Shown here: piece after piece, positions 9,407-29,378 of the stretch
Position numbering within the stretch: the stretch's first letter is position 1
How the letters are laid out: every line of letters starts with the position of its first letter
Source of the DNA: Candidatus Saccharimonadota bacterium
GTDB lineage: Bacteria > Patescibacteriota > Saccharimonadia > Saccharimonadales > Saccharimonadaceae
Assembly (NCBI GenBank): GCA_001029695.1
Contig: CP011211.1
Span: 660,001 to 692,000 of the forward strand
Length of the DNA stretch: 32,000 nt
Reading direction: 5' to 3'
Made by a program: the position numbers and the translations under genes
The notes under the pieces: generated by a model
What the model was told of the DNA's origin: nothing
The model's input: only the letters and a program-made list of their open reading frames with translations
Databases searched by the model: none

Positions 9407-10447
9407 GTGATTATTTCGTCGCTTCAGCTTCAGAATATCAGAACTCATGAGGTGTTTACTCATGAGTTATCACCTTACGTCACGCTTATTACCGGGAGCA
9501 ATGGTAGCGGCAAGACATCAATTATTGAGGCTATGATGATTGCCTTACAAGGCACTTCATTTAAAGGTACTGACACCGAAATACTTCGGCACGAAAGTGA
9601 ATGGTGGCGAATCGACATTAGAAGCGATGATCATGAACGTACTATTAAGTTTGACCCTTCGAAGTCATCAGGTAAGAAGCAATTTAGTATTGATAGTAAA
9701 ATATCGTATCGTTTAGCATCCGCGTATAAATATCCAGTTGTTTTGTTTGAGCCGGATGATCTTCGTCTTCTTCACGGTTCGCCATCGCGAAGACGGCAGT
9801 TTATAGACCGTTTCCTGTCGCAACTTGATTCGGAGTATGCGCAGGCGCTTCGTAAGTACGAAAGGGCTCTAAAGCAGCGTAATGCCCTACTGAAGCGACA
9901 ATTTGTAACGATTGACGATATGTTTGTGTGGGATATTGCAATTGGAGAGTATGGCGCAGAAATTATCGACAAACGCGTGCAGTGTATCGAGGCGCTTAAC
10001 GGCGATATTGCCGATACGTACAACACGATCGCACAATCAAACGATACCGTAAGTATCCACTACTCGCATACCTCGATTGATCATACGAAGCAAAAACTAA
10101 TCAATGAACTTCACGGGCGATTTGAGAGGGATAAACTACTAGGATTTACGAGCGTTGGCCCGCATCGTCATGACGTAGAGTTTCGATTTAACGGAAAATC
10201 TGCCCTGTCGGTCGCTTCTCGTGGTGAGGTGCGAAGTATAGTATTGGCGTTGAAGTTTCTCGAGGTGGATATAATTGAGCGTTTGACTAATCAGCGTCCA
10301 ATCATCTTGCTTGACGATGTTTTTGGTGAGTTAGATGGACAACGTCAGACACATCTTGCGACGAAGTTTAAAAATAAACAAATCATCATGACAAGCGCTT
10401 CAAGCACTGCTCTTCTTGAGGGGGCAATGGTGATTGCACTCGATTAA
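9407..10447 (+). CDS. recF: DNA replication and repair protein RecF
   Basis: 346 aa with a GTG start. SMC-like Walker A ITGSNGSGKTSIIEAM, signature region SRGEVRSIVLALKF and Walker B ILLDDVFGELD. Syntenic after dnaN. Confidence 0.9.
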   Translation: MIISSLQLQNIRTHEVFTHELSPYVTLITGSNGSGKTSIIEAMMIALQGTSFKGTDTEILRHESEWWRIDIRSDDHERTIKFDPSKSSGKKQFSIDSKISYRLASAYKYPVVLFEPDDLRLLHGSPSRRRQFIDRFLSQLDSEYAQALRKYERALKQRNALLKRQFVTIDDMFVWDIAIGEYGAEIIDKRVQCIEALNGDIADTYNTIAQSNDTVSIHYSHTSIDHTKQKLINELHGRFERDKLLGFTSVGPHRHDVEFRFNGKSALSVASRGEVRSIVLALKFLEVDIIERLTNQRPIILLDDVFGELDGQRQTHLATKFKNKQIIMTSASSTALLEGAMVIALD

Positions 10448-10935
10448 TTTATTGTTGGTGAAGTATCGGTTCCCGGGAGAACTGCTGGCTGGTTGATTGT
10501 CTGCAAGACGGATTTTGGTACATCAGGAAAGTCTGGTTGACTTAAGATTGGTCGTGGCGGTGTGCTACGGATAATCCATTTTCCGTCTTTTTTCTCCATT
10601 AGTACGCGAAGGGTGTCTCTACTATCTTCGTCTTTTCCTTGGTACGTTAATGTTGTGCCATACCACTGCCCTTCATCGTAGAGAGCGCCTCTGTTGATGA
10701 TGTAGAGATCAACGAGTGTTGGATATTTTCCGACAAGGACTGTGGAGATTGCCGGAAGCTCGGTTTCGAGCATAGTATCAAGCTCCGCTGTTGTTGGCTT
10801 AGGTTTCTGTTGTGGTTGTTCTACGACAGGAGGTGGCGTAGCCGGCTGGGATTGCAGTGAACCGACAATTGCAATGCCTCCGATGATAACAACGGCAGCG
10901 CATAGTAATATAACTGTAGTTCGATTATTATTCAT
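10444..10935 (-). CDS. Membrane-anchored exported protein, unknown function (last gene of T4SS-like operon)
   Basis: 163 aa. An N-terminal TM helix (TTVILLCAAVVIIGGIAIVGSL), a Pro/Gln-rich linker, then a ~100-aa globular part. Its ATG overlaps the upstream stop (ATGAATAA). No family recognised. Confidence 0.55.
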   Translation of the reverse strand: MNNNRTTVILLCAAVVIIGGIAIVGSLQSQPATPPPVVEQPQQKPKPTTAELDTMLETELPAISTVLVGKYPTLVDLYIINRGALYDEGQWYGTTLTYQGKDEDSRDTLRVLMEKKDGKWIIRSTPPRPILSQPDFPDVPKSVLQTINQPAVLPGTDTSPTIN

Positions 10936-11563
10936 GAGTCACCTCGAGTGGGTTTTTGAATTGTTTAAAGTCAATGGTGTAGTCAGTAGGATTGAAGCCA
11001 AGTTCTCTGATCTTCTGAACTGCAAAATAGCGGTATCGAGGAGAGTCGGTGTCAATAGTAATGATAATATCATCACCATTTGTACGGTAAGCAATCTTGT
11101 AATACGGATCAGTGTACGGGAGTTTTTCTATAATAGGAAAGCGAGATCGAAAATACTGGCCATTCTCTTGCGCCTCAAGACCACCGAAAGTTTCATTATC
11201 CTTGTAGGCTTTTTGATTCTTCTCTGCCCATTTTTTTGCGTCATCTGATTGCGGCGTGAGTGAGACCGCAACTACATTTTGCTTCTTTTTGTCAGTGACA
11301 ACGATTGTTTTTTCTTGCGAGTCAAAGCCAGGCTGCTCGACCTTTATCTTGTAAGATCCAGCAGTGAGATACTGCGTACCGTTACCTATCGTGTTGTTTT
11401 CGAGAGTGATACGAGCACTACTTGGTACGATAGAAAAAACTACTGGAAGTTTGCCTTGGCGAGATAGTGTAATGATAATACTAAAAATACAGATAAGGAG
11501 AAAGATCACTACTGAAGTGACGATAAAGATACGGCGCTTGCTGGAAAAAATCTGATTAAACAT
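10928..11563 (-). CDS. Membrane-anchored protein with PEGA-like beta-sandwich segment
   Basis: 211 aa with an N-terminal TM (IFIVTSVVIFLLICIFSIIITL). The segment VVFSIVPSSARITLENNTIGNGTQYLTAGSYKIKVEQPGFDSQEKTIVV resembles the PEGA domain pattern (from memory, not searched). The start overlaps the upstream stop by 8 nt (ATGTTTAA). Confidence 0.5.
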   Translation of the reverse strand: MFNQIFSSKRRIFIVTSVVIFLLICIFSIIITLSRQGKLPVVFSIVPSSARITLENNTIGNGTQYLTAGSYKIKVEQPGFDSQEKTIVVTDKKKQNVVAVSLTPQSDDAKKWAEKNQKAYKDNETFGGLEAQENGQYFRSRFPIIEKLPYTDPYYKIAYRTNGDDIIITIDTDSPRYRYFAVQKIRELGFNPTDYTIDFKQFKNPLEVTHE

Positions 11564-12845
11564 TTATTACTCCTGACTTCTTACGATACCACCGGAATGA
11601 CCCATCTGTCACGCCCTCTTTACCCGCCATTGGCGCTCGCTCGTCGAGTGATGCCGAGGCAATTTTACTATTAAATCCTTCTATATCACCAACATAAATA
11701 TACGTATGAGTGTCATTTATAGCAACATCACCAGGTAGCCTGTCGCTCGCATCAGTGGCACTGATAGATTCCCAGTTATTACGGAGCCATGCCTCTTGAC
11801 TAATAGTGTTACCTCCCTTCCCTGAGTTGTTATAGGTTGGTTCGGTCTTGCTATCCTGGAGTAGGAGTGAGACGAATCCACCGCAATCAATACCCTTATA
11901 TTTGATACCACCGACGTATCGTTGTTCTGAAGTGGCTTTATTGACCGCGGAGGTGTATTCCGCTCGTGCGTTTATATCGAGACCTTTATGAGTATCCCAC
12001 GCGTAGGCTTTAACTGTCGCTGCGAGATCTCCACCACTAAAGGTATCCCCATCGCACTGCGCACCTGTTGATGATCGTGTTGGATTTGAGACGACTTTGG
12101 CCTTGTCTTTATCGCCGTCAACGGGCGGCTCTGCAAGTGATGAATCGGCCGTACCGCCCGCAAGAGCCGGCGCATCTTTGTATGTGTCGTAGACTTTTTG
12201 AGCATTGCCACCGCGGACGGAACGTACTGCCTCTGGTGAGTCAGCGGAAGCTTCGTAGCCTGGATTTGGCGGGCCGTGCATTGCGACGGCTGCAGCAACT
12301 GGTTCGGTTGTTGACTTCAATGCCTGTAGGGTGTGAGTGTAATTACTGTTTAGCTCTTTCCAAACAAACTCAAGCTGGCCACCGAGATCGGTCATGCCGA
12401 CACCCATCTCTTTCATATGATCTTGAAGTGGTTTTTGTCGTCCAGTAAAGGTCCATTGTACTAGCCCAAACCCAACCCCATTTTCTGGGGTATAGTTAGC
12501 GTCGACGATCTTCCCGCCTTGTCGTACGGCAGGATTTGGTGTTTTGACTCCAGTTTTTTGATCGATTGCTCCGCCAGATTCTTGTGCCATATTTCCGATA
12601 ATTCCTGATGCTTGCGCGAGTGTAAGGCCTTTACGCATAAAGAAGTTTAATATCTGCTCCATAGTGCCATCACCTGCAAGTTGCACGGACCCTGTAGTAT
12701 CTGCTTCAGCACAGGTCGGGTCATAGAACATAATGTCGTTTGCGGAGTAAAATTGCTGATCGATTGTCGCAGCTTGTACTGGCTGGATAATCTCGACAGA
12801 TACGATACCGATAGCTACGATGACGGCAATAACACGCTTAAACAT
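11556..12845 (-). CDS. Secreted two-domain peptidoglycan hydrolase, CwlT-like (phage-tail-lysozyme-like N domain + NlpC/P60-like C domain)
   Basis: I prefer ATG at 12845, giving the signal peptide MFKRVIAVIVAIGIVSVEIIQPVQAA, over the track start at 13007, which runs deep into the upstream gene. The N domain has GIIGNMAQESGG...GVGFGLVQWT (phage tail lysozyme / muramidase-like pattern). The C domain has GIDCGGFVS...HTYIYVGD (Cys/His of NlpC/P60 or CHAP type). Confidence 0.75.
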   Translation of the reverse strand: MFKRVIAVIVAIGIVSVEIIQPVQAATIDQQFYSANDIMFYDPTCAEADTTGSVQLAGDGTMEQILNFFMRKGLTLAQASGIIGNMAQESGGAIDQKTGVKTPNPAVRQGGKIVDANYTPENGVGFGLVQWTFTGRQKPLQDHMKEMGVGMTDLGGQLEFVWKELNSNYTHTLQALKSTTEPVAAAVAMHGPPNPGYEASADSPEAVRSVRGGNAQKVYDTYKDAPALAGGTADSSLAEPPVDGDKDKAKVVSNPTRSSTGAQCDGDTFSGGDLAATVKAYAWDTHKGLDINARAEYTSAVNKATSEQRYVGGIKYKGIDCGGFVSLLLQDSKTEPTYNNSGKGGNTISQEAWLRNNWESISATDASDRLPGDVAINDTHTYIYVGDIEGFNSKIASASLDERAPMAGKEGVTDGSFRWYRKKSGVINV

Positions 12846-15807
12846 CGCGACTCCTATTGCCTGGCTGCGCATTTTTAGCTTTTTGTAGTATTGGCTCAGG
12901 ATTGGTTTCTTTACCAACCTGCCCGTTGTCACTGATGCGACCGCCATCCCATAATTCAAAATGGAGGTGCGGGCCTGTGCTCTGACCATCACTGCCGATT
13001 TTGCCAATCTCTTGGCCGGCCTTTATGGTATCTCCCTGCTTTACGAGAACGCCATCATTGTACATATGGCCGTAAAGGCTATCGACAATCTTTCCGTCAA
13101 CCTGATGACGTATGATGATCCAGTTACCGAAGCCTTCGGCTGGTCCTGCGGCAATTACCTTTCCGTCTCGCGCAGCAAAGATTGGTTTGTTGAGCGAGCC
13201 GCCCGAATGGGTGATATCCACGCCTCGGTGATCAGGTCGAGCAGCAGTTTTGAAGCCACTAGTGATATTTCCATCAGTTGTTGTCGGGTATGACCAGCCA
13301 TCTTCAGTGACGTTACCGGTTGCACCGCTAGCACTCCCTGTTGTTCCGGGATCGGCTTTTTGAGACTTGGATCCGTCAAGCGATTGGTCGACACTGACGT
13401 CCATTGTGTAGATACGGTAGCGCATGTTGAGCGGTTCATTTTCTTTTTTGCGGCACTCTGCTCCGTCGCCAGTATTTTCGTCCTGATTTTCACCCCACCC
13501 AGTTGATCGATTGACACATTCCTTGAGGAATTTAACATAGTTCCAGCCCTTATCGCCGTTGTCTTTTACTACCCCATCTTCGCTTTCGGGGTCGATATTT
13601 CCAGTGGCTGCCATCCAGTTTGCATTTTCAATAGGATCAAGCGCTAACTCCTCTTTTGAGTTGCCGTAGCGAACATTACAAAAAACGTCCGCTTTAATGC
13701 CGAGGCGTAAGTAGTTTACGTCATTACATTGCTGGAAGCGCTGAATCGGTGAAGCTGCAAATAATTTTGGTGCTGCGACAACTGCAAGTGAGGCTGGAAG
13801 TAGATTACCTACACTCATCGCCATCGTTCCAAGACTTGAAGCACTTTGTCGAACGTAAGGGGTGAGACTAAAGGCGATCGACCCAAGGAACGAGTATTGA
13901 TTAGTAATGTCAAGTGGCGTGTCTTTTGCTTGATACCGCTCAACTTCACTGTATGCTTGTGCTACTTTCGCGTTCTCTTGGCTTGCTTCAACCGCCTCTG
14001 TATCATCAAGCGGCTTCATGCCACGCGCCATTGCCATGTCGCCGGTAAGTCCGGCTGTGCCGACAAACGCAGCATCGACTGTGTCCATACCCTCTAGATC
14101 CTTAAAGAGATTGCCGGTGATGATGTCGGCAAGTACCGATTCGAGGTATGGAAGCATGGCACCGATTGCTACGGAGCCTGTTATCATGGCAACTGTCGAC
14201 AGACCGGCTGTTCCTGCGCCCGCGATAATACCAATAGCAAGTGCGCCAAGCCGAACGGCGGGATTTTGAACAAATTTACATTTGTCACTAATCGACTGCG
14301 GGTCGGGGTTTGTTCCGAGAGAGAGTGATAACGCAAGCGCTTGAGCGATACCATCAAAGGTATTTGGTGTACTGTCACCGAGCATAAATCGACTTGCGCG
14401 CATGTCGAGCTTCGGTACATCGTCGTGTGCAGCGAGACGAAATGCTGGTGAATCAAGTCCACTTTTCCCGAAGTCTTTATTTTCAACCATTGGTGGATTA
14501 CTTGCCGTGCCTGGTTCGGTTGCTCGAGACTCATCAATAACCTTCTCTTCTGTATTTGTTTGAGTGATGTTATCCCCAACGAATGACACCATCTCTTCAG
14601 TAGCTTCGTTCGCCTTCATGGCATCGGCTGGTGTCAGGATCATCGTTGTCGCGAATCGTACAGCTTGTTCTTTCTTTTTTACTTTCGAGAGAGCCGATAC
14701 CATGCGGCTCGTATTGTAGATAGTGCATGAGGTGTCGATAACTCCAGTAATCATCGCACCTTTTGCGAGGTTTTGAATTGTCTTACTGCTACCAATCTCA
14801 GCAAGGGCACTGATTCGCTCGCTCGACTGACGAGCTTGTTCAACTTCTTCGCTAGTGAGCGGATTACCTTTGTCATCAGTGTATGTCTTATTTCCGTCTT
14901 CATCAGTTTTGGTTACGATACTACTTGCATTGACACTCGCTTTTTTTTCGACGATAGAATTGACAGATTTTTGCCGCTCTTCGTCAGTGGATCCGTTTAT
15001 TTGAAGGGATTTTCTAGCACCATTTTTTGCGAATACTTTTGCGGCGACTTTATCGGCAAAGCCGATGACTTTTGGATTATATGAAGTGATAAGTGACGAA
15101 CGAAACGCCATATTGTTGAGACTTGCGTTCTTGAGCTCAGCAGCATTGGTTATGTATGTTTTTTCTCCGGACGTTGGATTAGTGAAGGTCATTCGAGTTA
15201 TTTGACCCCGTTTTCCACCTATACCTTTACTCATATCACGGTCGATTTCGATACCTTGGGCTTTAAACTTCTTCACCTGATCATCGTGAAGTGTACTGAA
15301 TCGACACGTAATTTTTACTGCACCGCATGAACCTTTTGTTGTATCTTTTAGTTTTGAGCGCAACAAAACAGCTGATCGCGTGTCAAGCGATCGAAGTTGA
15401 TCATTGAGATCTTGTGTGAATACTTCTTTGAGCTGCACAATGGCGATCGTTGGCGAAAACAACACTGTCAGTGCTGCGCCACCTCCGAAAAGCACTGCTA
15501 TGACAGCAAGGAGAGATGATTTGCCGCGGATTTTTTTAGAGGTAAGAAATTGCCAGCGCTTTTTTCCTGAGTTGGATGACGATGTTTGATTTTGAGGAGT
15601 ATACGGTATCGTCCCCTCGCTCTCGCGTGCGTTGAGCTTGGCGATATTTGCGTTTTCTTGAGCTGGATCGGCTGACTGTGAGTCGTACGTCGAGGCGAGC
15701 TGATTAAACTTCTCTTGTTCCTGCAGTTGGTGACGTAAACCGCGGCCCGCGTCGGTATACGGGTCGTGCTTTTCAGTCGCCTTGTCTTGTAAGTCTAATT
15801 TGCTCAT
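12838..15807 (-). CDS. Giant membrane protein with C-terminal M23 (LytM-type) metallopeptidase, copy B
   Basis: 989 aa. A polar ~100-aa N-terminus, then TM SSLLAVIAVLFGGGAALTVLFSPTIAIV. A long unassigned region is followed by a Gly/Ala-rich hydrophobic stretch, LGALAIGIIAGAGTAGLSTVAMITGSVAIGAML. The C-terminal M23 motifs are HRGVDI and GPHLHFE. Paralog of 18751-21678. Confidence 0.8.
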   Translation of the reverse strand: MSKLDLQDKATEKHDPYTDAGRGLRHQLQEQEKFNQLASTYDSQSADPAQENANIAKLNARESEGTIPYTPQNQTSSSNSGKKRWQFLTSKKIRGKSSLLAVIAVLFGGGAALTVLFSPTIAIVQLKEVFTQDLNDQLRSLDTRSAVLLRSKLKDTTKGSCGAVKITCRFSTLHDDQVKKFKAQGIEIDRDMSKGIGGKRGQITRMTFTNPTSGEKTYITNAAELKNASLNNMAFRSSLITSYNPKVIGFADKVAAKVFAKNGARKSLQINGSTDEERQKSVNSIVEKKASVNASSIVTKTDEDGNKTYTDDKGNPLTSEEVEQARQSSERISALAEIGSSKTIQNLAKGAMITGVIDTSCTIYNTSRMVSALSKVKKKEQAVRFATTMILTPADAMKANEATEEMVSFVGDNITQTNTEEKVIDESRATEPGTASNPPMVENKDFGKSGLDSPAFRLAAHDDVPKLDMRASRFMLGDSTPNTFDGIAQALALSLSLGTNPDPQSISDKCKFVQNPAVRLGALAIGIIAGAGTAGLSTVAMITGSVAIGAMLPYLESVLADIITGNLFKDLEGMDTVDAAFVGTAGLTGDMAMARGMKPLDDTEAVEASQENAKVAQAYSEVERYQAKDTPLDITNQYSFLGSIAFSLTPYVRQSASSLGTMAMSVGNLLPASLAVVAAPKLFAASPIQRFQQCNDVNYLRLGIKADVFCNVRYGNSKEELALDPIENANWMAATGNIDPESEDGVVKDNGDKGWNYVKFLKECVNRSTGWGENQDENTGDGAECRKKENEPLNMRYRIYTMDVSVDQSLDGSKSQKADPGTTGSASGATGNVTEDGWSYPTTTDGNITSGFKTAARPDHRGVDITHSGGSLNKPIFAARDGKVIAAGPAEGFGNWIIIRHQVDGKIVDSLYGHMYNDGVLVKQGDTIKAGQEIGKIGSDGQSTGPHLHFELWDGGRISDNGQVGKETNPEPILQKAKNAQPGNRSRDV

Positions 15808-15884: not shown

Positions 15885-17504
15885 TCAATAACTAAAATTG
15901 ATCGTAACGGTATTTAGATCTATACCCTTCTTCTCAAGCATGTCGGTTACTCTCGACTTTGCTTGATTGAGAGCGGTTTCATCTAATGCACCCGAATTTT
16001 TTCGTACTGTTTTATTTAGTGTTACTTTTAGTCGTATTCGTATATTTGATCCTACGAAGTCCATATCGCTAATATCGGTTGATTCAGAAAATGTTACCGG
16101 AAGAAGGTCTATTATTCGTTTATTGCCTGTGCTATTTACTTCACTATTGATTTTGTAGGCGTAGACGCGACTACCTCCATCTTTTACTGATGATAGTGCA
16201 AAAACTGATTCCCCGTAAACACTAACTCTTTTTATATTAATGTGTTCTGAGTGAAAACGACTTACCGCTCCATCGTTAGTTTCATTGATGGCGAATACTG
16301 TATTATCTTTTACGTAATACGTATCTACCCCCGTGTCTACAGAGTCAATATTCTGTTCAAAGAGATGAGCTTTTATTTGTGTGTCGTTTTGAGACTCTAG
16401 CTTATAGAGTCTTTTCCCGTCAAGCGCTAGTATAGTATTGTTTTTTGTAACAAAGAGCTGGTCGACGGATATATCTGATTGAATGCTATATGTATTTTTT
16501 TGAGATGGATTTTCTGTCGAAAAATCTATCATCGTAAGCTTACCTTCAGGCAGATCAACTTTCTTACTACTTGATGAGCCCTCACTACTTTCATCAGAGT
16601 GTGGAGTGAGACTTGATCCTCCCGTGTAGCACGCCGCCTCGGTATTGTTTAGAGTGCATATTGTTGATTTTTTTACGCTACTATAGTCGCTAGGTGCGGT
16701 CATTTTTTTATATTCTACTGAATTATATTCTACTGAAGGCATACCGTAATACACTGCGCCGTCCCAGGAAATAAAAAGGAAGTTACGATTTTCAGGGTGT
16801 ATTTTATCGGTCACTATTTTCGCAAAACGAAGGGTTGACTCATCGATATTTTCTGGCGCAGGAAAGTGCTTTAGTCCGCCTGCCACACTGATGTAGAAGA
16901 GAGGATCTTCTGCGGGTGCATCCGTATCGAACACTGGCGCAATTCCTATAGCTCCGTCTCGATATGGTGTCATGAACTTAGTTGTAGTTGCTGATTTTGC
17001 TGCTATTTTATTCGTCCATATGTTATTACCTGATAGAGCGCTATAGGAATATAACTGAGTTGGTGTTTTGCAATTGTAAGATAATAACTGGTCACTTGAG
17101 TAGTCATAGACTGAACAATCAGAAATCGGATTCATGTACGCAACCTTATCTGCATTTCTATCTTTCTGAAAAGTAAAATCTACAGTGGGGATAGTAAAGA
17201 GCGCTGTATTAATTGAACGACTTGATTGGTAGTTTCCAAGTGAGGCATGAAGGACTTTAGAATCACGCGGTATTATTGCAAAATCTCCGACTAGTAGTGC
17301 TCGGGATGTTTCAAATATATAATCTTTTGAAGCCGTCACTTCAAGTTGACTATTTGTAATATTATCTTCATTTTTTACCGATATTTGTACGAGAGAAAAA
17401 GTAAACCATAGCCATACAACGAGGCATACTAGGGAGATACTCACTCCCAACCCTACCCAGAACCGGATTGACTTTTTGGTAATGAAATTAAGTATTTGAT
17501 TCAT
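15885..17504 (-). CDS. Bitopic membrane protein, large beta-rich ectodomain, unknown function
   Basis: I prefer ATG at 17504 (MNQILNFITKKSIRFWVGLGVSISLVCLVVWLWF...), preceded by AGGAG overlapping the upstream stop. The track start at 17606 would overlap the upstream hydrolase by ~90 nt. 539 aa, one TM, no family recognised. It is noticeably more AT-rich than its neighbours. Confidence 0.6.
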   Translation of the reverse strand: MNQILNFITKKSIRFWVGLGVSISLVCLVVWLWFTFSLVQISVKNEDNITNSQLEVTASKDYIFETSRALLVGDFAIIPRDSKVLHASLGNYQSSRSINTALFTIPTVDFTFQKDRNADKVAYMNPISDCSVYDYSSDQLLSYNCKTPTQLYSYSALSGNNIWTNKIAAKSATTTKFMTPYRDGAIGIAPVFDTDAPAEDPLFYISVAGGLKHFPAPENIDESTLRFAKIVTDKIHPENRNFLFISWDGAVYYGMPSVEYNSVEYKKMTAPSDYSSVKKSTICTLNNTEAACYTGGSSLTPHSDESSEGSSSSKKVDLPEGKLTMIDFSTENPSQKNTYSIQSDISVDQLFVTKNNTILALDGKRLYKLESQNDTQIKAHLFEQNIDSVDTGVDTYYVKDNTVFAINETNDGAVSRFHSEHINIKRVSVYGESVFALSSVKDGGSRVYAYKINSEVNSTGNKRIIDLLPVTFSESTDISDMDFVGSNIRIRLKVTLNKTVRKNSGALDETALNQAKSRVTDMLEKKGIDLNTVTINFSY

Positions 17505-17512
17505 AACAGCTC

Positions 17513-21699: not shown

Positions 21700-23598
21700 T
21701 TAAAGTTGCATCTCCTGAGCAACTGCTTCTTGAGCTGCGCGCTGACGTGCGAGCTCTTGCATTCGTTTTTCTTCCTCTTCTTGCATCTGTTGAACAGGGT
21801 TCGTAGTAACAAGCTGATGCTCGGTGCGACTTGCCACAATCTGAACATGAACGTGGTTTGCGCCTGCAAAGAAAAGCCCTTGTCCTACTGGGAAGTTGGC
21901 GAGACGCTTTCGCTCTTCGTCGGTTAGCTTAAAGACGTCGGCGAGCACATCGACAGCACTCGGCGATTGCTTCAAGAGGAGTTGCATCGAGGAGTTGGCG
22001 ACGATCGCACGTCCCATCTTACTTGCCATAAAGTCTTCGACGTCCTGGCTGATAGTCGTCACCCCAAGATAGTACTTACGAGCACGCTTCGCGAGTGAGA
22101 ATAGGAAGTTTGCCGAGTCTTCGTATTTCATAAGCTGCCAGGCCTCGTCCACGATAAGCATACGTTTCTTTAGGTGGCTTCTCGTGACGTTCCAGATGTG
22201 CGAGAGTACGATATACATTGCGACGGGACGGAGCTCATCTTCGAGGTCGCGAATATTAAATACAACCATCTGATTATTAATATCGATATTTGACTGCATC
22301 GAGAAGATACCTGCGAATGTACCGGTGGTGTATTTACGGAGGCGCTGAGCGAGTGATGGGCCGGAGCCTTCCATGTGCACGAGTGTATCGTAAAGATCGA
22401 TCATAGTTGGAGGTAGTGAATTGTGCGTTAGTGGATCACTTGTGATGCCTGATCGAGCATACGTGTCTATCAGTGCCTGGTCGAGGTCGGCTTCTTCTGC
22501 TGGAGTAAGGCCCGTTGCAGTCGTAATGCCACCAGATGCAACATGCGCTCCACCGAGCATGAGTCGAAGTAGACCGTGAAGGGTGACGAGATTTGCTCGC
22601 AGCGCATCGTCGGCTTCGTCGGTGTCGACAACTCTTGGAAGATCAAATGGATTGATACGAACGTCACTGTTGAGGCTGAGTCGAATGTAGCTTCCACCAA
22701 CCGCGTCAGATAGTTTTTGGTACTCATTTTCTGGGTCGATGATGATCACGTCCGCACCCATCATCATACTGCGAATTGCTTCAAGCTTTACGGTAAACGA
22801 CTTACCGGAACCGGACTTTGCAAATACTACCATGTTGGCATTTTCCAGAGAATAGCGATCAAAGATGATCAGGCCGTTGTTGTGCATGTTGATGCCGTAG
22901 AGGATACCTTTTTCTTGAGTAAGATCGGCGCTCGTGAACGGGAAGCTGGTACTGATTGCACCCGTATTCATATTTCGACGGATCTGTAGCTGATCGGTCA
23001 TCTGAGGAACACTTGAGTTTATGCCTTGTTCTTGCTGAGATGAGGCAACCTTACTAAAGATGAGCTGTTGCCCAAAGATAGTTTCGATCTTGTGCTGTAC
23101 AAAATTCAGCTCATCCATACTGTCGGCGTATAGAGTGATATAAAGACCGTAGCGGAAGAAACGTTCTGAACCTACCTGGATCTCGTCTCGTAGTTCCTCG
23201 GCATCATTGAGCGCTGCTTCAAGTCCCGGGTCACGAGTACGGCCCTTTTCTTCGTTAATAGCCATAGTGGCCTGCATTTGGGTTACCTTTTTGCGCAGGT
23301 TCTTGAGGACGATCTCGCTTTCGACTGGGTAGAAGAACATACTGACATCAAGTACTTCATCGATGTTGATAACTGAGCTGAGCCAGCCTGTATAGATCTG
23401 ACGAGGATATGCGTACACATAGAGAGTACGACCGTACTTTGTGCCTAGTCGGAAGTAACTGGCATGGATCTCGAGACTGCTTGGCGCTACGAGGTCACGA
23501 AGTGTTGTGATACCTTTTTGAAATGCTTGCTCAACTTCAAATTGTTCACGTGCGCGTTGTTTTGCGGCGATATCGACTGCATCGGGTTTTTTAGCCAT
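21700..23598 (-). CDS. virB4: VirB4-family T4SS ATPase (Gram-positive ConE/PrgJ/TcpF type)
   Basis: 632 aa. Walker A VVFAKSGSGKSFT, Walker B KRMLIVDEAWQLM and a downstream TTISQDVEDF motif. The N-terminal region YGRTLYVYAYPRQIYTGWLSSV is typical of monoderm VirB4s. A strong AAGGAGGAG RBS lies upstream. Confidence 0.9.
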   Translation of the reverse strand: MAKKPDAVDIAAKQRAREQFEVEQAFQKGITTLRDLVAPSSLEIHASYFRLGTKYGRTLYVYAYPRQIYTGWLSSVINIDEVLDVSMFFYPVESEIVLKNLRKKVTQMQATMAINEEKGRTRDPGLEAALNDAEELRDEIQVGSERFFRYGLYITLYADSMDELNFVQHKIETIFGQQLIFSKVASSQQEQGINSSVPQMTDQLQIRRNMNTGAISTSFPFTSADLTQEKGILYGINMHNNGLIIFDRYSLENANMVVFAKSGSGKSFTVKLEAIRSMMMGADVIIIDPENEYQKLSDAVGGSYIRLSLNSDVRINPFDLPRVVDTDEADDALRANLVTLHGLLRLMLGGAHVASGGITTATGLTPAEEADLDQALIDTYARSGITSDPLTHNSLPPTMIDLYDTLVHMEGSGPSLAQRLRKYTTGTFAGIFSMQSNIDINNQMVVFNIRDLEDELRPVAMYIVLSHIWNVTRSHLKKRMLIVDEAWQLMKYEDSANFLFSLAKRARKYYLGVTTISQDVEDFMASKMGRAIVANSSMQLLLKQSPSAVDVLADVFKLTDEERKRLANFPVGQGLFFAGANHVHVQIVASRTEHQLVTTNPVQQMQEEEEKRMQELARQRAAQEAVAQEMQL

Positions 23599-23600
23599 TA

Positions 23601-24482
23601 CTACATCTCCTCCTTCGCGAGGTGAAGCTGCGGCGCTTCACCCTGACCTTTTCGTACGTACATCGCAGTGACATCCTGGAAGTTTCCAAGAGGTTCCCGT
23701 ACTGCAGTGTCTGGGTTGTAGAAGTTGTAATAGAGTTCGCCTAGCTCTTTTGTATTTAGTTGGACACACTTTACGCCAAGCTGGAATAGTCCACTCATTA
23801 CTGAGTCGACATGATTTTTGATCTCATCTTTTGCTTTCTCGTATTGAGCATGATCAACAACGATTGCGCGCTGCTGTTGGTTGCCGCCGAAGATAGTGCC
23901 GAACAGGCTCTTACTGGCGCGTTTTACAGATTGGACATCTCCCTGCGGCCAGTACGGTACGATCACGTAAAAGCTCTTATCCATGATGTTCGCTTCCTGT
24001 GAAACGGTGTCGATAAAGTCGATATAGTCATCAGTAAGGACGTTAAGGAGCATATTCTCTTGGTTTCGACGAATATTAGTGAGTCGCTCGATGTATGGTC
24101 CGATATCAACCCGCTGTGAACGAATGAGGATTTGAACAGGAAAATAAAGAGAGTTCAAAAAGTTCTGATAGCTATATTCAATTCCTTCACGCTCTTTGCT
24201 ACTCATGAGGTCGAAGTTGATTGACTTACAGGCGACGACTGCACGAAAACTACCATCATTCATAACGACCATATTGTCACGGATCTCAGAAAAAAGAAGT
24301 GTATTCTGAGTAGTGTTTGGATTATTTGGTGGGGGTGGTGTCGTTGCTTCTGCTGTATTTGCGGCGGGCTGTGGGGGCTGTGGAGCACCTTGACCAGGCA
24401 TTGCTTGGGGTTGCTGCTGATATGGCATGCCTGGACCACCTTGTGGCTGCTGCATTTGCGGCTGCTGATTGTTTGGCTGCAT
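23601..24482 (-). CDS. T4SS-associated protein: Q/P-rich N-terminus plus domain resembling the extreme N-terminal domain of long VirB4 proteins
   Basis: 293 aa. The first ~60 aa are Gln/Pro low complexity (MQPNNQQPQMQQPQGGPGMPYQQQPQAMPGQGAPQPPQP). Then DGSFRAVVACKSINFDLMSSKEREGIEYSYQNFLNSLYFPVQILIRSQRVD recalls the N-terminal region of ~800-aa Gram-positive VirB4s (from memory). The stop lies 2 nt before the VirB4 ATG. Confidence 0.45.
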   Translation of the reverse strand: MQPNNQQPQMQQPQGGPGMPYQQQPQAMPGQGAPQPPQPAANTAEATTPPPPNNPNTTQNTLLFSEIRDNMVVMNDGSFRAVVACKSINFDLMSSKEREGIEYSYQNFLNSLYFPVQILIRSQRVDIGPYIERLTNIRRNQENMLLNVLTDDYIDFIDTVSQEANIMDKSFYVIVPYWPQGDVQSVKRASKSLFGTIFGGNQQQRAIVVDHAQYEKAKDEIKNHVDSVMSGLFQLGVKCVQLNTKELGELYYNFYNPDTAVREPLGNFQDVTAMYVRKGQGEAPQLHLAKEEM

Positions 24483-24510: not shown

Positions 24511-25503
24511 TTATCGTAACGAAATCGTTACTTCATCGCCATCCATGAGCGACTTATCTTTCTCTTCAAGCCTATTTGCTTCTTTTGAAAGTGTCTCGAC
24601 AGTTACGTCGTCTCTATATGCCAGCTCCTCATAACGTTTCTTAGCACGTTCTATTGTAGCAGTATCAGGGGTGTTTTCGCTAGTGTTTAGTCGGTCTTCG
24701 CGGTCATCACTTGCCTCTTCTGCGAGCGCAGATGCATATGCTATGGCGTCAAGTTCGCTCTTCCCAAGATAGCTTTGAGTTGACTGTGCTACTGGAGCTG
24801 GCTGAGGCCTTGCCATAGGATTAAAAGGCTGAGCTTGTGTGACAACTGGCGGATGCTGTGCGAGGAGCGGGTTTGACTCTGCTGCCTGAGTCAGTGACAC
24901 GGGCGAAGCTTGTTGCATTTGTGCGACTGCTTGCTGGTGGCGTGCGCTACTGCTTGCATTGAGCTTACTTGAAAGGATTTGCATCTCAGAGTTCGAGGCG
25001 TCCATCATATCGGGAACTTGTTGTGATTCGTAGTATAGGTCGCGATTTAGCGATGTTTCTGGTACTGGCACTCCCTCACCTCGAACTGACCAGCCGTGGC
25101 TATCGACAAGACTTGCCAGGTAGTCGAGTCGTTTCGTTGCCTCGTCTTGGCTAAAGCCTTTTGTGCGTATACGGTCTGCATCTTTTGGTGGGATGATGGT
25201 GACAAATGACGATATGCCGTCTGGCTGCCAAAAGCGCTTACGTGACTTGAGGAAGTAAAATGACACGACTGCAGATAGATATGTCTCCATCGGTTGGTCT
25301 TTACGGAGCGGTAGCGCTAGTGCACCGAAAAAGATAATAAAAGGCAGCGGTATGATCGCAAGTGGTATAAATACCGTCGAAAGCCCCCACGCACCCGCCA
25401 TAGAGATAGCGACAACAATCAAATAAATGAATTGTCGAAAACTAAACGGGCCGATGAGCTTATCGTCAGCCTCGACGTCTTGAGGAACTTTATATACCGC
25501 CAT
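24511..25503 (-). CDS. PrgI-family (VirB3-like) T4SS membrane protein with long C-terminal extension
   Basis: The N-terminus MAVYKVPQDVEADDKLIGPFSFRQFIYLIVVAISMAGAWGL plus a second TM (IIPLPFIIFFGALALPL) matches the PrgI/Orf17-type pattern. It sits two genes upstream of VirB4. At 330 aa it has ~230 extra residues, partly Q/A/P-rich. Confidence 0.7.
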   Translation of the reverse strand: MAVYKVPQDVEADDKLIGPFSFRQFIYLIVVAISMAGAWGLSTVFIPLAIIPLPFIIFFGALALPLRKDQPMETYLSAVVSFYFLKSRKRFWQPDGISSFVTIIPPKDADRIRTKGFSQDEATKRLDYLASLVDSHGWSVRGEGVPVPETSLNRDLYYESQQVPDMMDASNSEMQILSSKLNASSSARHQQAVAQMQQASPVSLTQAAESNPLLAQHPPVVTQAQPFNPMARPQPAPVAQSTQSYLGKSELDAIAYASALAEEASDDREDRLNTSENTPDTATIERAKKRYEELAYRDDVTVETLSKEANRLEEKDKSLMDGDEVTISLR

Positions 25504-25570: not shown

Positions 25571-26104
25571 TTAGGCAATTTTTTTATACGGCATTTTACC
25601 TCTTCGTGCCATAAAATGCTGTATAGAAAAACAGACTATAGCAGCAACCGACCCTGCTGTAATAACAGGAAGTAGTGTTGCGAATGTTGGTAAAGCTAAG
25701 AGTAAGATTACGATAAATAGGAAACTGATCGTAATTATTAGTATTTTAGCGAAAAACAATGAACTTGCCGTCGGCTTTTTGTAAAGCCGACCAAGTATTC
25801 GCTTGAGGATATTTGATGAGTGTTTACCAACGAAATAGATAGTGTACACTGCGACTATTATTATGAGAAGCGTAAGAAATATCTTTATTTCGATAGATAA
25901 CTCTGAATTGGAGGATTGGGCGGGGTACGTTTCAATAAGGATAGTTTCTAATGAGTATTCTTGCTGAAGTGTATTGTTAAATAACTGATTGATATTATCA
26001 AAAATTACCGTTGCTGAAAAAGAGAGAAAGAGTGCTATCTGGATTACGCTAATAAGGTAGCCTATGTAGCTCGCTGCTCTTGTAAAAGAATTACTTATCT
26101 TCAC
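25571..26104 (-). CDS. Small polytopic membrane protein (about 4 TM), unknown function
   Basis: 177 aa with a GTG start 5 nt after the upstream stop. There are four long hydrophobic segments. It is AT-rich, has no obvious RBS and matches no family I recognise. Supported mainly by operon context and the uninterrupted frame. Confidence 0.5.
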   Translation of the reverse strand: MKISNSFTRAASYIGYLISVIQIALFLSFSATVIFDNINQLFNNTLQQEYSLETILIETYPAQSSNSELSIEIKIFLTLLIIIVAVYTIYFVGKHSSNILKRILGRLYKKPTASSLFFAKILIITISFLFIVILLLALPTFATLLPVITAGSVAAIVCFSIQHFMARRGKMPYKKIA

Positions 26105-26109: not shown

Positions 26110-28194
26110 TTAAGGTCCATTCGGTGTTGGTGGAGGTGTTGGCGGACCTTGCCGCCTGCTTGACGGTATTGCTCTAGAGTCGAGCGTATTTAAACTATGG
26201 CCGTCGGCGATGTGCTGGATAATAGCTCGTTGATTTCCTCCGATATCTTCTTTACTGCTAATCTTGAGGATTTCTTGAGCCGTAGTTTCATCCAGCGCTC
26301 CTGTTGCTGCTGCGTTGTACATAGACTCGTGTGTTTGCGTAGCCATTTGTTTGTAGGATAGGCCACTAAACGCTTCGGATCTAATACTATTAGGCATAGT
26401 CTGTCCTGCAGGGGTGGATCCTCCTGTCGAGCCGCTAGCTGCCCAGTTGGCGATAGTGCCACTCTTCTCTTTGATCGAGCCATGTTGCTCTAATGTATGC
26501 TGCTTGAGGGCGCGAACGACGTCAGCAGTTGAATTAGCGTTGACAGAGTCTTTAGACATGACTGCTTCAAATGTATCCACACCCTTTCCTCCCGATCCGA
26601 GCAAGATATTTTCAGCAGCCTTTGCAGCAGTTTCATTTCCGCTTTTAATGGCGTTTTCTAGTAGCTGCGCTACATGATCGATGTTACCACGAGTTTGAAG
26701 TCGCATTTCCGCTTCACTATCCTTGACTTGTTGATTTGTGTTTGACGACGCAACATTAACAGCTTGCCGCTGCACTGCCGACTGTTGAGCCTGTATACTC
26801 TTTGTTTGAAGGCTTTGTGGTAGGGCGCCTGTAATTCCGCCAGACATAGCTTTTCGAGCTCTCCCTCGGAAAGATTTATCTGTCCCGATGACACCTTGCG
26901 CATAGCGGTTATCCTTAAATTGTTGCTTACCAACCTTCCTAGCTGCCATACCTCGAGCGAGTGCTGTGTTTTCAAACTTACCTTGCGCACCCTTGCCAAG
27001 ACCACCGCTTCCGCGCTGTACTCCCTGTGCGATCTTGCCACCAATAGCACCAGCGGCTGCTAGCGCACCCTTCATAACCGCAAATACGGCTAGTAATGGT
27101 GCGACTGCAACTCCAGCTGCAACAAGCGCTAGCATAATCCCTGGACCTTGACCATCTTCACAAGGCACGTCTTGTGACGCAGATGTATCGAGAACTACAC
27201 ATGGCTCGCCCTCCACCCTATATGCCGCCTCTTTATAGTTGCTTGCTGATTGCCCTGAGGCAAGTATAATTGCACTAGCGAGTTGCCCGCCACCCATAAG
27301 CATTGCGACGATAGGAAATACCATTAGTAGCTTCCAGAACATACTAAGCCATTTACTAAACAGTTTCTCTGTGTTTGGCAGTAGGTATGCTACGAAAGCT
27401 AGCGGTGATACAACAACGAGTAGGATGATGAACGTCTTGCGAAGTAGGAGAATGATAATAATGGCGATACAAGTAGCCACAATGAGCCCTACCATTCCTA
27501 TTAGTGGCCCTAAGAGCATCCATATGGCAGTTGCCGCTAGAGCGGCGGTTGCAATTGAGCCAAGTAAGCTAACATCGGTGACGTTCGGTGTGCCGGGTGT
27601 TTGTACAGGCATGACTGACTGACTAAATACAGTATGAGATAAACCGACTAACCAATCCATTATTGCGTATCCTAGTGTATTTGAAAGGTCGACCATAAGC
27701 TGACATATAATAAAAGAAAGGTTCATGGCGATAGCAATTATAATAAGTCGCGGCATCATACGTTTTATGCCGTAGTTACTAAGACCCATACTTGTTATTT
27801 GTGAATAAATAACAATAATAAACACAATAATAAAGATAACGTTAGCCGTATTCCGGGCTAATTCCCATGCTGTTTTTGTGCCATTTCCCGGATTATCACT
27901 AATTAACTGAGGTTCTGTTTGTAAAAAATTATCTGCGAGAAATGCAAATAGTTTATCACCGACAAATGCTGCACTTTCAACAATAGGACAAACGATCCAC
28001 CCTACTTTTTCAACGGCACAGGTGGTACCGTCTTCGTTTTTAGGAACAGTTTCATTAGTTGGAGGAGACTGTGAGTTATCAGTACTTGTCGGTTGTGCTA
28101 ATGCCTGAGGTGCTAATGCTGTAAACAGGGTGCATATAAATAAGAATGCTGTAAGAGCAAAAATAACCTTATTTCTATTAAGTAGGTTGAACAT
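26110..28194 (-). CDS. VirB6/TrbL-like polytopic T4SS membrane protein with long soluble C-terminal region
   Basis: I prefer ATG at 28194, giving the signal peptide MFNLLNRNKVIFALTAFLFICTLFTALAPQALA. The 11 extra residues from the track start at 28227 are encoded by a hairpin arm and loop. About 6-7 TM helices occupy the first ~400 aa. They are followed by a ~300-aa polar region ending in GPPTPPPTPNGP. Its size, topology and position in a T4SS operon fit VirB6/ConG/TrbL analogues. Confidence 0.6.
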   Translation of the reverse strand: MFNLLNRNKVIFALTAFLFICTLFTALAPQALAQPTSTDNSQSPPTNETVPKNEDGTTCAVEKVGWIVCPIVESAAFVGDKLFAFLADNFLQTEPQLISDNPGNGTKTAWELARNTANVIFIIVFIIVIYSQITSMGLSNYGIKRMMPRLIIIAIAMNLSFIICQLMVDLSNTLGYAIMDWLVGLSHTVFSQSVMPVQTPGTPNVTDVSLLGSIATAALAATAIWMLLGPLIGMVGLIVATCIAIIIILLLRKTFIILLVVVSPLAFVAYLLPNTEKLFSKWLSMFWKLLMVFPIVAMLMGGGQLASAIILASGQSASNYKEAAYRVEGEPCVVLDTSASQDVPCEDGQGPGIMLALVAAGVAVAPLLAVFAVMKGALAAAGAIGGKIAQGVQRGSGGLGKGAQGKFENTALARGMAARKVGKQQFKDNRYAQGVIGTDKSFRGRARKAMSGGITGALPQSLQTKSIQAQQSAVQRQAVNVASSNTNQQVKDSEAEMRLQTRGNIDHVAQLLENAIKSGNETAAKAAENILLGSGGKGVDTFEAVMSKDSVNANSTADVVRALKQHTLEQHGSIKEKSGTIANWAASGSTGGSTPAGQTMPNSIRSEAFSGLSYKQMATQTHESMYNAAATGALDETTAQEILKISSKEDIGGNQRAIIQHIADGHSLNTLDSRAIPSSRRQGPPTPPPTPNGP

Positions 28195-28205
28195 GTCTAT
28201 ATCTA

Positions 28206-28251
28206 AAGATACCTTAAGCACTACCATACTTCAATATGCTTAAGGTATCTT
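28206..28251 (-). promoter_or_regulatory. Perfect 15-bp stem / 16-nt loop hairpin in the gap between operon genes 1 and 2
   Basis: AAGATACCTTAAGCA (28206-28220) is the exact reverse complement of TGCTTAAGGTATCTT (28237-28251). The loop is 28221-28236. No U-tract follows on either strand, so it is not a classical terminator. Confidence 0.6.
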
Positions 28252-28265: not shown

Positions 28266-29297
28266 CTAGTTCGCAGTTGTGATAGATTCGATAGCTGAGC
28301 GTACTTTTGGATCACTTGGGTCATATGCTGTTTTTAATGACCATACATCATTTCCGTTGTCGGTCTTCTGAAGCTCGTAAAGAGATAAGAAGGCCTTACC
28401 ATCTTCGACACCGCGTCCAAGTATTACTTCAGCGCCAGCATCACCTATATTTTCACCCATGAAGCTCTGATTTTTTATTCTTGGGTAGTCGATTGGCGAT
28501 GCTTCATAAACTGAAATGATTCCACCTTGTCCATTACCAATCCTATTGGCTAATTTATCAAACCCCGAGTTTTGTGGATCTAGAATTACAGACAAAAGTT
28601 TGCGTCCACGTTCAATTTCTTGCGCTGAACTTCCTTGAGCAGATGCATCGTAAAGATTAATTGAGTAGCTATTAAGTATGTCTTGATCTGTATACGAAGA
28701 CTTATCTTCTGGAAGTGGCTGATTAACTAATCTTGCCTGTTCTGGCGATAAGTGTTTTTGCATGAAAGCTAGTGAGTCAGCGCTCCATTCATCTAACTTT
28801 CCCGCAAAGTGATCGACTCTAGTATGTGTGTCTAACTCACGAAAATTTGTAAGACTCATATTGTCGAGTGCTTCAGAGGTGTACTCAATTGGAGCAACAG
28901 TCTCAGGTGCGTATCCGGGGACAAGCGGCGCGGAGATGTCACGGTCGCCACTACCATTTTTCAGGTCATTAATCATGGCTGCACCGTCCATTATGTTCTT
29001 GCCTACTATACCTGCACCTATTAAAGATGTAAGAGTGAGGCTACCTATAATGACTTTAGCTTTGGTGCTGAGTCCTCTTTTTTCGTTACGATCAATTGGA
29101 TCAATTTCTTCACGGTGGCGTGTATTTGGAGCGGTTCCGGGGCCGTACTGAGATGTTCCTGCACCCTCAATATACACAGGTGGCTGATTGGGCATGTCAT
29201 TTAATGAATTAGGAGTGGTAACTCCGTGTGCTTGCTCAATATCGGTTTGTTCTTCTTTTGGAGCTTGGGCTTTTCGATGATAGTTCTCTATCGACAT
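28266..29297 (-). CDS. Bitopic membrane protein, first gene of the T4SS-like operon (possible VirB8/TcpC-type scaffold, unassigned)
   Basis: 343 aa. A ~80-aa polar N-terminus, one TM (VIIGSLTLTSLIGAGIVG) and a ~240-aa C-terminal domain. RBS AAAGGA lies upstream of the ATG. The VirB8-like idea rests only on topology and position. Confidence 0.55.
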   Translation of the reverse strand: MSIENYHRKAQAPKEEQTDIEQAHGVTTPNSLNDMPNQPPVYIEGAGTSQYGPGTAPNTRHREEIDPIDRNEKRGLSTKAKVIIGSLTLTSLIGAGIVGKNIMDGAAMINDLKNGSGDRDISAPLVPGYAPETVAPIEYTSEALDNMSLTNFRELDTHTRVDHFAGKLDEWSADSLAFMQKHLSPEQARLVNQPLPEDKSSYTDQDILNSYSINLYDASAQGSSAQEIERGRKLLSVILDPQNSGFDKLANRIGNGQGGIISVYEASPIDYPRIKNQSFMGENIGDAGAEVILGRGVEDGKAFLSLYELQKTDNGNDVWSLKTAYDPSDPKVRSAIESITTAN

Positions 29298-29349
29298 AGC
29301 GCTTGGTCCTTTGTCACTAGGGACGGTTATACTTTCTCTATATTAAGAT

Positions 29350-29378
29350 ATTATACACTAAATTTGTAAAGTATGCAA
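29350..29378 (-). promoter_or_regulatory. Candidate sigma-70-type promoter of the T4SS-like operon
   Basis: The minus strand reads TTGCAT (29373-29378), a 17-nt spacer, then TATAAT (29350-29355). It lies ~50 nt upstream of ATG 29297 and directly downstream of the terminator hairpin of the preceding gene. Confidence 0.55.

Follow-up and report, generated by a model that had tools for sequence, protein, structure and literature searches.

A probable conserved chromosomal type IV secretion system beside the replication origin of a Saccharibacterium, whose variable first gene shares a domain with Rhodococcus prophage genes

What is the long run of minus-strand genes that adjoins the replication origin of an uncultured Saccharibacterium: a conjugative element, or a machine that the cell has made its own? 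We addressed this question for a 32,000-nucleotide (nt) stretch of Candidatus Saccharimonadota bacterium (contig CP011211.1, positions 660,001 to 692,000 of the forward strand), referred to below as the window, in which 13 minus-strand genes run from g1 (29297) to g13 (10444). An earlier note, made from the letters of the window, had read them as a domesticated chromosomal type IV secretion system (T4SS) of Gram-positive type that is probably not dedicated to conjugation. This view is supported by our analysis, as the ~10-kb flanks lack a relaxase, a type IV coupling protein (T4CP), an integrase and att sites, and as the synteny recurs in related genomes. It is highly probable that the locus represents the conserved chromosomal T4SS of Saccharibacteria, which belongs to the Patescibacteria clade derived from monoderm conjugation machinery of the mating-pair formation type FATA (MPF-FATA). 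As a kind, this locus is already published; that is, the interpretation is right, not new. The proteins of the window are identical to AKM80597-AKM80606 (Candidatus Saccharibacteria), where VirB4 is already so annotated.

The relatives used for comparison came from a genome-collection scan that yielded 579 tblastn-confirmed VirB4 relatives, and all locus counts given here refer to the best 80. Gene starts are those called on identical public contigs. The motor and the membrane platform are encoded by g2 to g6:

26110..28227, minus strand: g2 (VirB6a), 705 aa, or 694 when begun at the second ATG; VirB6/TrbL-like polytopic protein whose long C-terminal half is hydrophilic
25571..26104, minus strand: g3, 177 aa, small polytopic protein with about four predicted transmembrane (TM) segments, no family assigned
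24511..25503, minus strand: g4, 330 aa, PrgI/VirB3-like protein extended by a long C-terminal region (Pfam PrgI 3.7e-12, 47 bits vs cutoff 27)
23601..24482, minus strand: g5, 293 aa, TrsD-like protein, detached N-terminal domain of VirB4 (NCBIfam TrsD 1.7e-7)
21700..23598, minus strand: g6, 632 aa, ATPase made up of the central and C-terminal regions of VirB4 (its match to conju_CD1110 is confined to positions 170-732 and complements that of g5)

The VirB4 ATPase proved solid by profile as well as structure matches (P-loop_TraG 1.5e-28 and AAA_10; PDB 4AG5 9e-46), and the motifs AKSGSGKS and LIVDEAW are seen in its translation. Against the NCBIfam model conju_CD1110 (VirB4-like conjugal transfer ATPase, CD1110 family), g6 reaches 379.9 bits at a cutoff of 325. 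Since g6 matches this model only over positions 170-732 and g5 supplies positions 3-119, profile coverage indicates that VirB4 is split into two proteins in the manner of TrsD/TrsE of pGO1. In addition, g5 covers positions 100-233 of VirB4_plasma and has a precomputed Pfam match to the TraC-like family PF26593; its TrsD score lies below the curated full-length cutoff. A counterpart of g5 is present in 79 of the 80 loci, always directly upstream of virB4. Profile-profile comparison (hhalign) of the g5 family with the cognate VirB4 family returned a probability of 0.1 from shallow alignments (Neff ~2), and because of this shallowness the assignment of g5 was taken from the NCBIfam and Pfam matches.

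The PrgI/VirB3-like protein announced by the earlier note was likewise borne out above its cutoff, and 72 of the 80 related loci hold a counterpart of g4. The call of a VirB6/TrbL-like protein has less direct support: the window copy is weak when taken alone (TrbL at E=0.79, sub-threshold in the Pfam scan; a weak precomputed TrbL_3 match), but it is backed by the TrbL_3 match and by a second VirB6 outside the window, which is 34% identical to g2 and passes TrbL (26.3 bits vs cutoff 25.9; 7.6e-6). Hydrophobic segments are predicted at the N-terminus of g2 (one) and between residues ~120 and ~400 (several), and its 1489 homologues all come from Saccharibacteria or metagenome-assembled genomes (MAGs). 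For g3, tblastn found no match in the 80 related loci; in locus L091 a 182-aa gene occupies its position. The parts seen directly in the sequence are thus a split motor (g5 plus g6) and a platform made up of PrgI/VirB3 (g4) and two VirB6-like proteins, g2 and the copy outside the window.

Downstream of the motor, the remaining seven genes encode wall hydrolases and accessory anchored proteins:

18751..21678, minus strand: g7, 975 aa, 'giant' A, with an N-terminal tail, one TM segment, a ~700-aa ectodomain of no recognised fold and a C-terminal M23 domain (HQGID ... HLH; M23 8.6e-23)
17513..18766, minus strand: g8, 417 aa, anchored muramidase (Phage_lysozyme2 2.2e-32; match to the phi29 gp13 lysozyme domain 1e-5)
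15885..17606, minus strand: g9, 573 aa, or 539 when begun at a later ATG; extracellular protein with an anchor, no family assigned (sub-threshold beta-propeller hint, E=0.0036)
12838..15807, minus strand: g10, 989 aa, 'giant' B, architecture as in g7 (M23 5.5e-25, motifs HRGVD ... HLH)
11556..12845, minus strand: g11, 429 aa (start at the called ATG), muramidase with a probable NlpC/P60 endopeptidase domain (Phage_lysozyme2 1.7e-26; NlpC/P60 E=0.044, weak)
10928..11563, minus strand: g12, 211 aa, exported PEGA-domain protein (PEGA 2.3e-5, 24.7 bits vs cutoff 20.8)
10444..10935, minus strand: g13, 163 aa, anchored protein, no family assigned, last gene of the operon, which shares its terminal 4 nt with the convergent recF

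By our count, the machine comprises five membrane-anchored wall hydrolases (two M23 giants and two muramidases, each of the latter with a probable second hydrolase domain) plus accessory anchored proteins, and all hydrolases are predicted to bear N-terminal anchors or signal sequences. The giants g7 and g10 form a pair of paralogues, with 23% identity over 948 aa, a tail proposed to be cytoplasmic and intact M23 motifs HxxxD and HxH. In a fold search against the PDB, the reasonably confident AlphaFold2 model of g10 (pLDDT 74.7, pTM 0.68) was matched in its M23 domain alone, the first ~830 residues having no solved counterpart; a match to a cyanophage pre-ejectosome (TM 0.12) was discarded as weak. 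Judged from the motif HGKGLAID ... HQDHIH by inspection only, the second domain of g8 may be of LAS/M15 type. The earlier description of these hydrolases as CwlT-like is right for the architecture, with Phage_lysozyme2 in g8 and g11, but goes no further, as the NlpC/P60 match of g11 is weak and its sequence matches no solved structure. A counterpart of g9 was found in 5 of the 80 loci. Among the proteins for which the earlier note could name no family, those of 293 aa (TrsD-like), 211 aa (PEGA) and 343 aa (g1, a bitopic protein with a weakly NTF2-like ectodomain) are now described; for the others its statement holds.

The hydrolase part (10444-21678) has the form of a tandem of two non-identical modules, A (g7-g9) and B (g10-g13). 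Module A alone is found in close relatives (L004, L006, L007) and a B-like module alone in more distant relatives and in Southlakia, while the window and two relatives (L001, L003) contain both.

Where does this gene set lie on the chromosome? From its left end, the window carries sucD, a ParA-like ATPase gene and two glycosyltransferase genes, in this order. The genes jag, yidC, rnpA and rpmH are on the minus strand and dnaA, dnaN and recF on the plus strand, with the origin between them:

6449..6563, no strand: DnaA-box cluster (oriC) between rpmH and dnaA, with three perfect TTATCCACA boxes and one single-mismatch box

DnaA-box matches number 16 across the window as compared to 7.8 expected. 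The origin adjacency claimed previously is therefore confirmed by the order rpmH-rnpA-yidC-jag / dnaA-dnaN-recF together with the boxes at 6449-6563, and the T4SS genes (29297 to 10444) begin ~4 kb from oriC. Because oriC lies between rpmH and dnaA, the 19-kb operon is on the lagging-strand side, where its transcription runs head-on to replication. The ParA/AAA_31-type ATPase gene at 1141-2154 is also near the origin; the window shows no evident gene for a ParB-like protein.

The 13 minus-strand open reading frames (ORFs) are present as the earlier note had listed them. Their widest gap measures 77 nt (g9/g10), and four start/stop overlaps occur, one of 16 nt (g7/g8) and three of 8 nt each (g10/g11, g11/g12 and g12/g13). 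Two candidate signals precede g1:

29350..29378, minus strand: candidate sigma-70 promoter, TTGCAT-17-TATAAT, read directly and missed by the consensus scan
29410..29439, minus strand: terminator-like hairpin (11-bp stem and T-rich tail), which ends the upstream esterase gene and separates the esterase from the operon

As to the promoter, the sequence TTGCAT-17 nt-TATAAT is present, but its function is plausible rather than demonstrated, because the -35 hexamer is weak, agreeing with TTGACA at 3 of 6 positions only, and because promoter-like sites are no commoner in the region than in shuffled sequence (35 found vs 33.2 expected, i.e. no enrichment).

Is the locus restricted to these 13 genes? 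The flanks were read on an identical public sequence (contig L081; 100% identity to the window over the 11 kb compared). The earlier extent, 13 genes in ~19 kb, turned out to be too short, as the locus continues for ~11 kb past 29378 and leaves the window. To the right of 29378 there follow, in order, the esterase, a 222-aa gene, a third giant, the second VirB6, two larger pilin-like proteins, five pilins and Hsp20. The third giant enters the window with its tail:

31791..32000, minus strand: tail of a third giant paralogue, 927 aa, without M23 (full gene L081 10792-13575; 24-27% identity to g7 and g10)

The five VirB2-like pilin genes (PF18895, 3.6e-7 to 5.6e-13) are located at 17519-19664 of L081, and the two larger proteins beside them carry sub-threshold pilin C-termini. 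In a 96%-identical strain (L090 2619-5523), the third giant is divided between two called ORFs, of 344 and 596 aa, which suggests a frameshift or an assembly error. The ~10 kb to the left of the window contain sucC and envelope-polysaccharide genes.

An element of the conjugative type should betray itself by its mobilization genes. No relaxase, T4CP or integrase domain was found in any ORF of the window or in ~10 kb on each side (~52 kb altogether), nor were flanking direct (att-like) repeats, and neither tRNA genes nor Rfam families were found in the window. The P-loop ATPases encoded by the window ORFs and the left flank are VirB4, RecF, DnaA and the ParA-like protein only. Thus the earlier statement that relaxase, coupling protein, integrase, tRNA target and direct repeats are missing holds across the window; the same note had named such genes and att repeats contiguous with the locus just outside as the mark of an ordinary mobile element, and the ~10 kb searched on both sides contain none of them.

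The relatives tell the same story of a fixed chromosomal locus. The best 80 of the 579 VirB4 relatives are 79-93% identical and nearly all labelled as Saccharibacteria or unclassified MAGs, with a few other bin labels. In 52 of these 80 loci dnaA lies less than 10 kb from virB4; the recurrent core order is VirB6 - PrgI - TrsD-like - VirB4 - giant - lysozyme - recF/dnaN/dnaA, and the synteny beside dnaA/dnaN/recF is kept across dozens of Saccharibacteria species.

The closest published counterpart is that of Southlakia epibionticum, where, according to Wang et al. (2023), SEML1_0006-0019 encode an unusual T4SS that resembles Gram-positive ones and has essential pilins (PMC10633639). The system has no recognisable coupling or relaxase proteins, and nearly all of its genes were essential by transposon sequencing (PMC10633639). 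From SEML1_0003 to SEML1_0020, the order begins with recF, a prealbumin-like protein, a PEGA protein, a lysozyme with a Cys-protease domain, a giant with a DD-peptidase domain and VirB4, and continues with a 293-aa protein, PrgI, a VirB6-like protein, an NTF2-like protein, a second VirB6-like protein, pilins and Hsp20 (PMC10633639, Table S2). The window locus and that of Southlakia strain ML1 (SEML1_0004/0006-0019) agree in their position right after dnaA-dnaN-recF, in strand, gene order, divergent pilin array and Hsp20, and in the lack of a relaxase or T4CP within the locus. By position, g11 corresponds to SEML1_0006, g12 to SEML1_0005, which also has 211 aa and is classed as essential, and g13 to SEML1_0004. 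As in the window, the Southlakia T4SS genes are on the minus strand and follow a plus-strand recF. The two differ in that Southlakia has one hydrolase module, whereas two are present here (g7-g9 and g10-g13), and in that SEML1_0007 ends in a Hedgehog/DD-peptidase domain, whereas the giants g7 and g10 end in M23. Moreover, the window has the extra 177-aa gene with four predicted TM segments, its VirB6 proteins are ~300 aa shorter, and the esterase, the 222-aa gene and the third giant are inserted between the two VirB6 genes.

A survey by Quinonero-Coronel et al. (2025) reports 2,474 Patescibacteria virB4 genes, scarce relaxases and proximity to dnaA (PMC12102498). It also describes MPF-FATA ancestry, TrsD, PrgI, VirB6, VirB2 arrays and M23/lysozyme enzymes in place of VirB1 (PMC12102498), and a 2025 review restates the published picture of the Patescibacteria T4SS. 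The window locus fits the clade as portrayed in the sections of the survey that were read (PMC12102498): it shares the MPF-FATA-like VirB4, TrsD, PrgI/VirB3, VirB6 and VirB2-like arrays, the non-VirB1 hydrolases with M23, the lack of a relaxase and the location near dnaA, dnaN and rnpA. They reveal no essential difference, except that the split-VirB4 reading, the g1/VirB6a cassette treated below and the Rhodococcus link are not described there. With the MPF-FATA systems themselves (CTn2 of C. difficile, TrsD/TrsE of pGO1, Prg of pCF10, Con/CwlT of ICEBs1), the locus has in common a CD1110-family VirB4 above the cutoff, PrgI, a VirB6-like protein, a separate TrsD-like protein as in pGO1 and membrane-anchored, probably bifunctional wall hydrolases. 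However, it lacks relaxase, T4CP, oriT-processing genes, integrase and adhesin, possesses VirB2-like pilins, which are missing from Gram-positive conjugation systems, and resides at a fixed place beside the chromosomal origin, its counterpart in a relative being essential. Finally, Ptl of Bordetella and VirB of Brucella also operate without a coupling protein, and Ptl substrates arrive by Sec export, to which the N-terminal anchors or signals of the hydrolases may be compared. Unlike the present locus, these two belong to the MPF-T systems of diderms and have a core complex in the outer membrane, and homology is limited to VirB4, VirB3, VirB6 and VirB2.

Against this background, three other explanations were weighed. 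The locus could be an ordinary integrative and conjugative element (ICE) or its decayed remnant, with relaxase, coupling protein and integrase located outside the window. Its VirB4 passes the NCBIfam cutoff for the conjugative CTn2/CD1110 family, and its hydrolases are built in a way reminiscent of CwlT and PrgK from Gram-positive elements. This reading is already largely refuted by the flanks of the identical contig, which are free of such genes for ~10 kb on each side, as well as by the absence of a tRNA and direct repeats and by a GC content of the T4SS locus that resembles the rest of the window. In addition, the place beside recF-dnaN-dnaA is fixed in most related species, unlike that of an ICE, and 80-93% identity of VirB4 across the recovered Saccharibacteria loci fits a vertically inherited core gene. 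We regard an ICE as essentially excluded.

The remaining two alternatives accept a resident machine and concern what it does; both appear unlikely to us, and to about the same degree. It might work in reverse, importing host DNA, RNA or nucleotides as do ComB of H. pylori and the archaeal Ced system. Saccharibacteria are devoid of nucleotide synthesis (PMC10633639). According to a 2026 preprint, one Patescibacterium feeds on host RNA and has tubular structures that may be T4SS pili. In addition, VirB4 shows weak NCBIfam similarity to CedB (6.5e-11) and CedD (1.6e-6). The latter scores are far under the cutoffs, though, and amount to generic P-loop similarity, and none of the locus products was recognised as a nuclease or as binding DNA or RNA. 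Southlakia that has lost comEC is no longer competent but stays viable, so that DNA uptake by ComEC-dependent natural transformation is not the essential function. Alternatively, the essential output could be a VirB2-like fibre by which the epibiont stays attached to its host, that is, a pilus or adhesion apparatus with no translocated substrate. Such a role would agree with the 5-7 pilin-domain genes adjoining the locus, with the essentiality of the pilin array in Southlakia and with the lack of a T4CP to recruit substrates. However, adhesion is already provided in Saccharibacteria by type IV pili, which are separately essential, and five wall hydrolases along with three giant paralogues exceed the normal needs of pilus biogenesis.

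Several points weigh against our own interpretation of the locus as the conserved T4SS. Its treatment as a single operon leans on short gaps and one weak promoter. The scans span ~52 kb of a 1.04-Mb genome, so that a distant T4CP or relaxase elsewhere is possible; Southlakia encodes a VirD4-like T4CP elsewhere in its genome, which is non-essential. The evidence that the system is needed for epibiotic growth comes from the Southlakia homologues (PMC10633639). Lastly, no fold could be recognised for ~40% of the coding capacity, namely the N-terminal ~830 aa of the giants, g3, g9 and g13.

If the locus is the conserved Saccharibacterial T4SS, it may operate as follows. The machine would assemble at the contact between epibiont and host, with the split VirB4 docking on PrgI and VirB6. 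The hydrolases would open the wall of the epibiont itself and probably that of the host too, and the pilins would form a conduit or an attachment fibre. VirB4 alone may power both assembly and transfer, which would parallel Ptl and the VirB system of Brucella, neither of which uses a T4CP. Because neither a T4CP nor a relaxase is found, the substrates would more likely be proteins or host-derived material than relaxase-piloted DNA. The variable parts of the machine, which probably face the host, would be g1 and VirB6a.

What, then, is the protein encoded by the first gene of the operon?

28266..29297, minus strand: g1, 343 aa, bitopic protein, first gene of the operon, with an N-terminal tail, one TM segment at ~80-100 and an ectodomain at 136-343
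28287..28811, minus strand: segment of g1 in common with a gene of an R. qingshengii Mu-like prophage (525 bp, 94.7% nucleotide identity by blastn; L088 10322-10846)

No match to g1 was obtained in Pfam, NCBIfam or PHROG. AlphaFold2 predicts residues 136-343 as an alpha+beta ectodomain with pLDDT ~98. Comparison of this model with the PDB gave nothing significant; the top entries listed are NTF2-like folds, including the VirB8-like TraH (5AIW, E 0.25) and TraM (4EC6, E 0.75) of pIP501, and the viral structures of BFVD returned no match. The positional equivalent in Southlakia, SEML1_0012, is called NTF2-like (e4ec6D1) and is non-essential. With a topology that suits a VirB8-like bitopic protein (PrgL/TraM/TcpC), g1 is a candidate for a VirB8-like or a host-specificity component. 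By family profile, a member of the g1 family occupies the same position in 17 of the 80 related loci.

The first two genes, g1 and g2 (about 26071-29249), behave as a swappable hypervariable cassette. This becomes apparent from a strain that carries another g1 allele, P0060 (L090 8001-9143). The T4SS flanks of this strain are 93.8-96.3% identical to the window genome, but its g1 cannot be aligned with that of the window and its VirB6a reaches only 71% nucleotide identity. The next best VirB6a homologue among 5.8 billion proteins is 63% identical.

Outside MAGs, all named members of the g1 family come from Rhodococcus, where three contexts were seen: a Mu-like prophage of R. qingshengii, in which the gene lies in the interval from Mu F to Mu I and has Pycsar genes in its vicinity; an island with integrase, ParA and resolvase; and a plasmid of R. 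fascians, in which the gene adjoins a NACHT NTPase. The 525-bp segment shared by g1 and the prophage gene has 41% GC in g1 and 43% in the phage gene, whose own 5' third has 57%, and the dN/dS of the pair is 0.14. The tandem neighbour in the prophage (L088 10929-11804) matches allele P0060 in turn, over 616 bp with 94.8% nucleotide identity and a dN/dS of 0.07. In both pairs, the shared parts have a Saccharibacterial composition of 41-44% GC, as compared to 54-57% in the 5' parts of the Rhodococcus genes. That is, a single prophage holds the ectodomains of two g1 alleles in tandem, each fused to an N-terminus and TM segment of Rhodococcus type. In a crude neighbour-joining tree, the Rhodococcus members are interleaved among the Saccharibacterial ones (polyphyletic). 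No match to g1 was detected by tblastn against 50,697 phage records, and none to its 525-bp segment among plasmids.

A chimeric assembly was considered as the source of the Rhodococcus link and rejected, since the same arrangement is present in two independent assemblies; several species of Rhodococcus encode related proteins with multi-strain WP_ accessions, among other places on a 6.5-Mb chromosome and on a closed plasmid, which also counters this explanation. On account of the ~95% nucleotide identity across phyla, the Saccharibacterial GC of the shared parts, the low dN/dS and the interleaved tree, the data may be read as recent and repeated transfer of the g1 ectodomain from the epibiont to mobile elements of the host, the domain having probably been kept functional on both sides. 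By the same comparisons, the R. erythropolis group is pointed to as a likely host of this uncultured lineage. The combined proposal, namely that g1 and VirB6a constitute a host-specificity module and that Rhodococcus mobile elements repeatedly captured the g1 ectodomain, is nevertheless put forward with little confidence. It is tempting to speculate that the prophage copies may serve as allele-specific decoys or exclusion factors against the epibiont T4SS. The sharing of the g1 domain with Rhodococcus prophage genes appears to be new, as the searchable literature (Rhodococcus, prophage, host defence) yielded no paper on a Rhodococcus link of the Saccharibacteria T4SS, nor on the g1/VirB6a cassette.

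Two further genes stand between the two blocks of the T4SS at the right edge of the window:

29463..30932, minus strand: secreted HSL-family alpha/beta-hydrolase (esterase; BD-FAE 6.8e-23, Abhydrolase_3 and PDB carboxylesterase matches)
31000..31668, plus strand: 222-aa anchored protein, no family assigned, between the two T4SS blocks; kept in L001, L003, L006 and L090

The position of the esterase is kept in the close relatives L001, L003, L006, L007 and L090. In this protein, the N-terminal region is Cys-rich and a linker is PT-rich. That it may act on the mycolic-acid envelope of a host is an idea only; a LysB-like mycolyl-esterase was considered in this regard, but the matches are generic to HSL-family carboxylesterases and include no LysB of mycobacteriophages, leaving this, too, at the level of an idea.

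Taken together, our data concern one of the few molecular handles on the life of Patescibacteria on other bacteria, and Patescibacteria make up a large share of bacterial diversity. Since the importance of this locus and its essentiality in Southlakia are already in print, the window adds another member rather than a discovery. The member contributes detail: a VirB4 that is split in the style of pGO1, a modular and duplicable hydrolase module, two first genes that are prone to swapping, and a family of giants, essential in Southlakia, with ~830 aa that match no solved structure. If the nucleotide identity with Rhodococcus holds up, it would offer a sequence-based route to naming the hosts of uncultured Saccharibacteria and would provide a concrete, testable candidate for a T4SS-directed resistance of hosts to epibionts.

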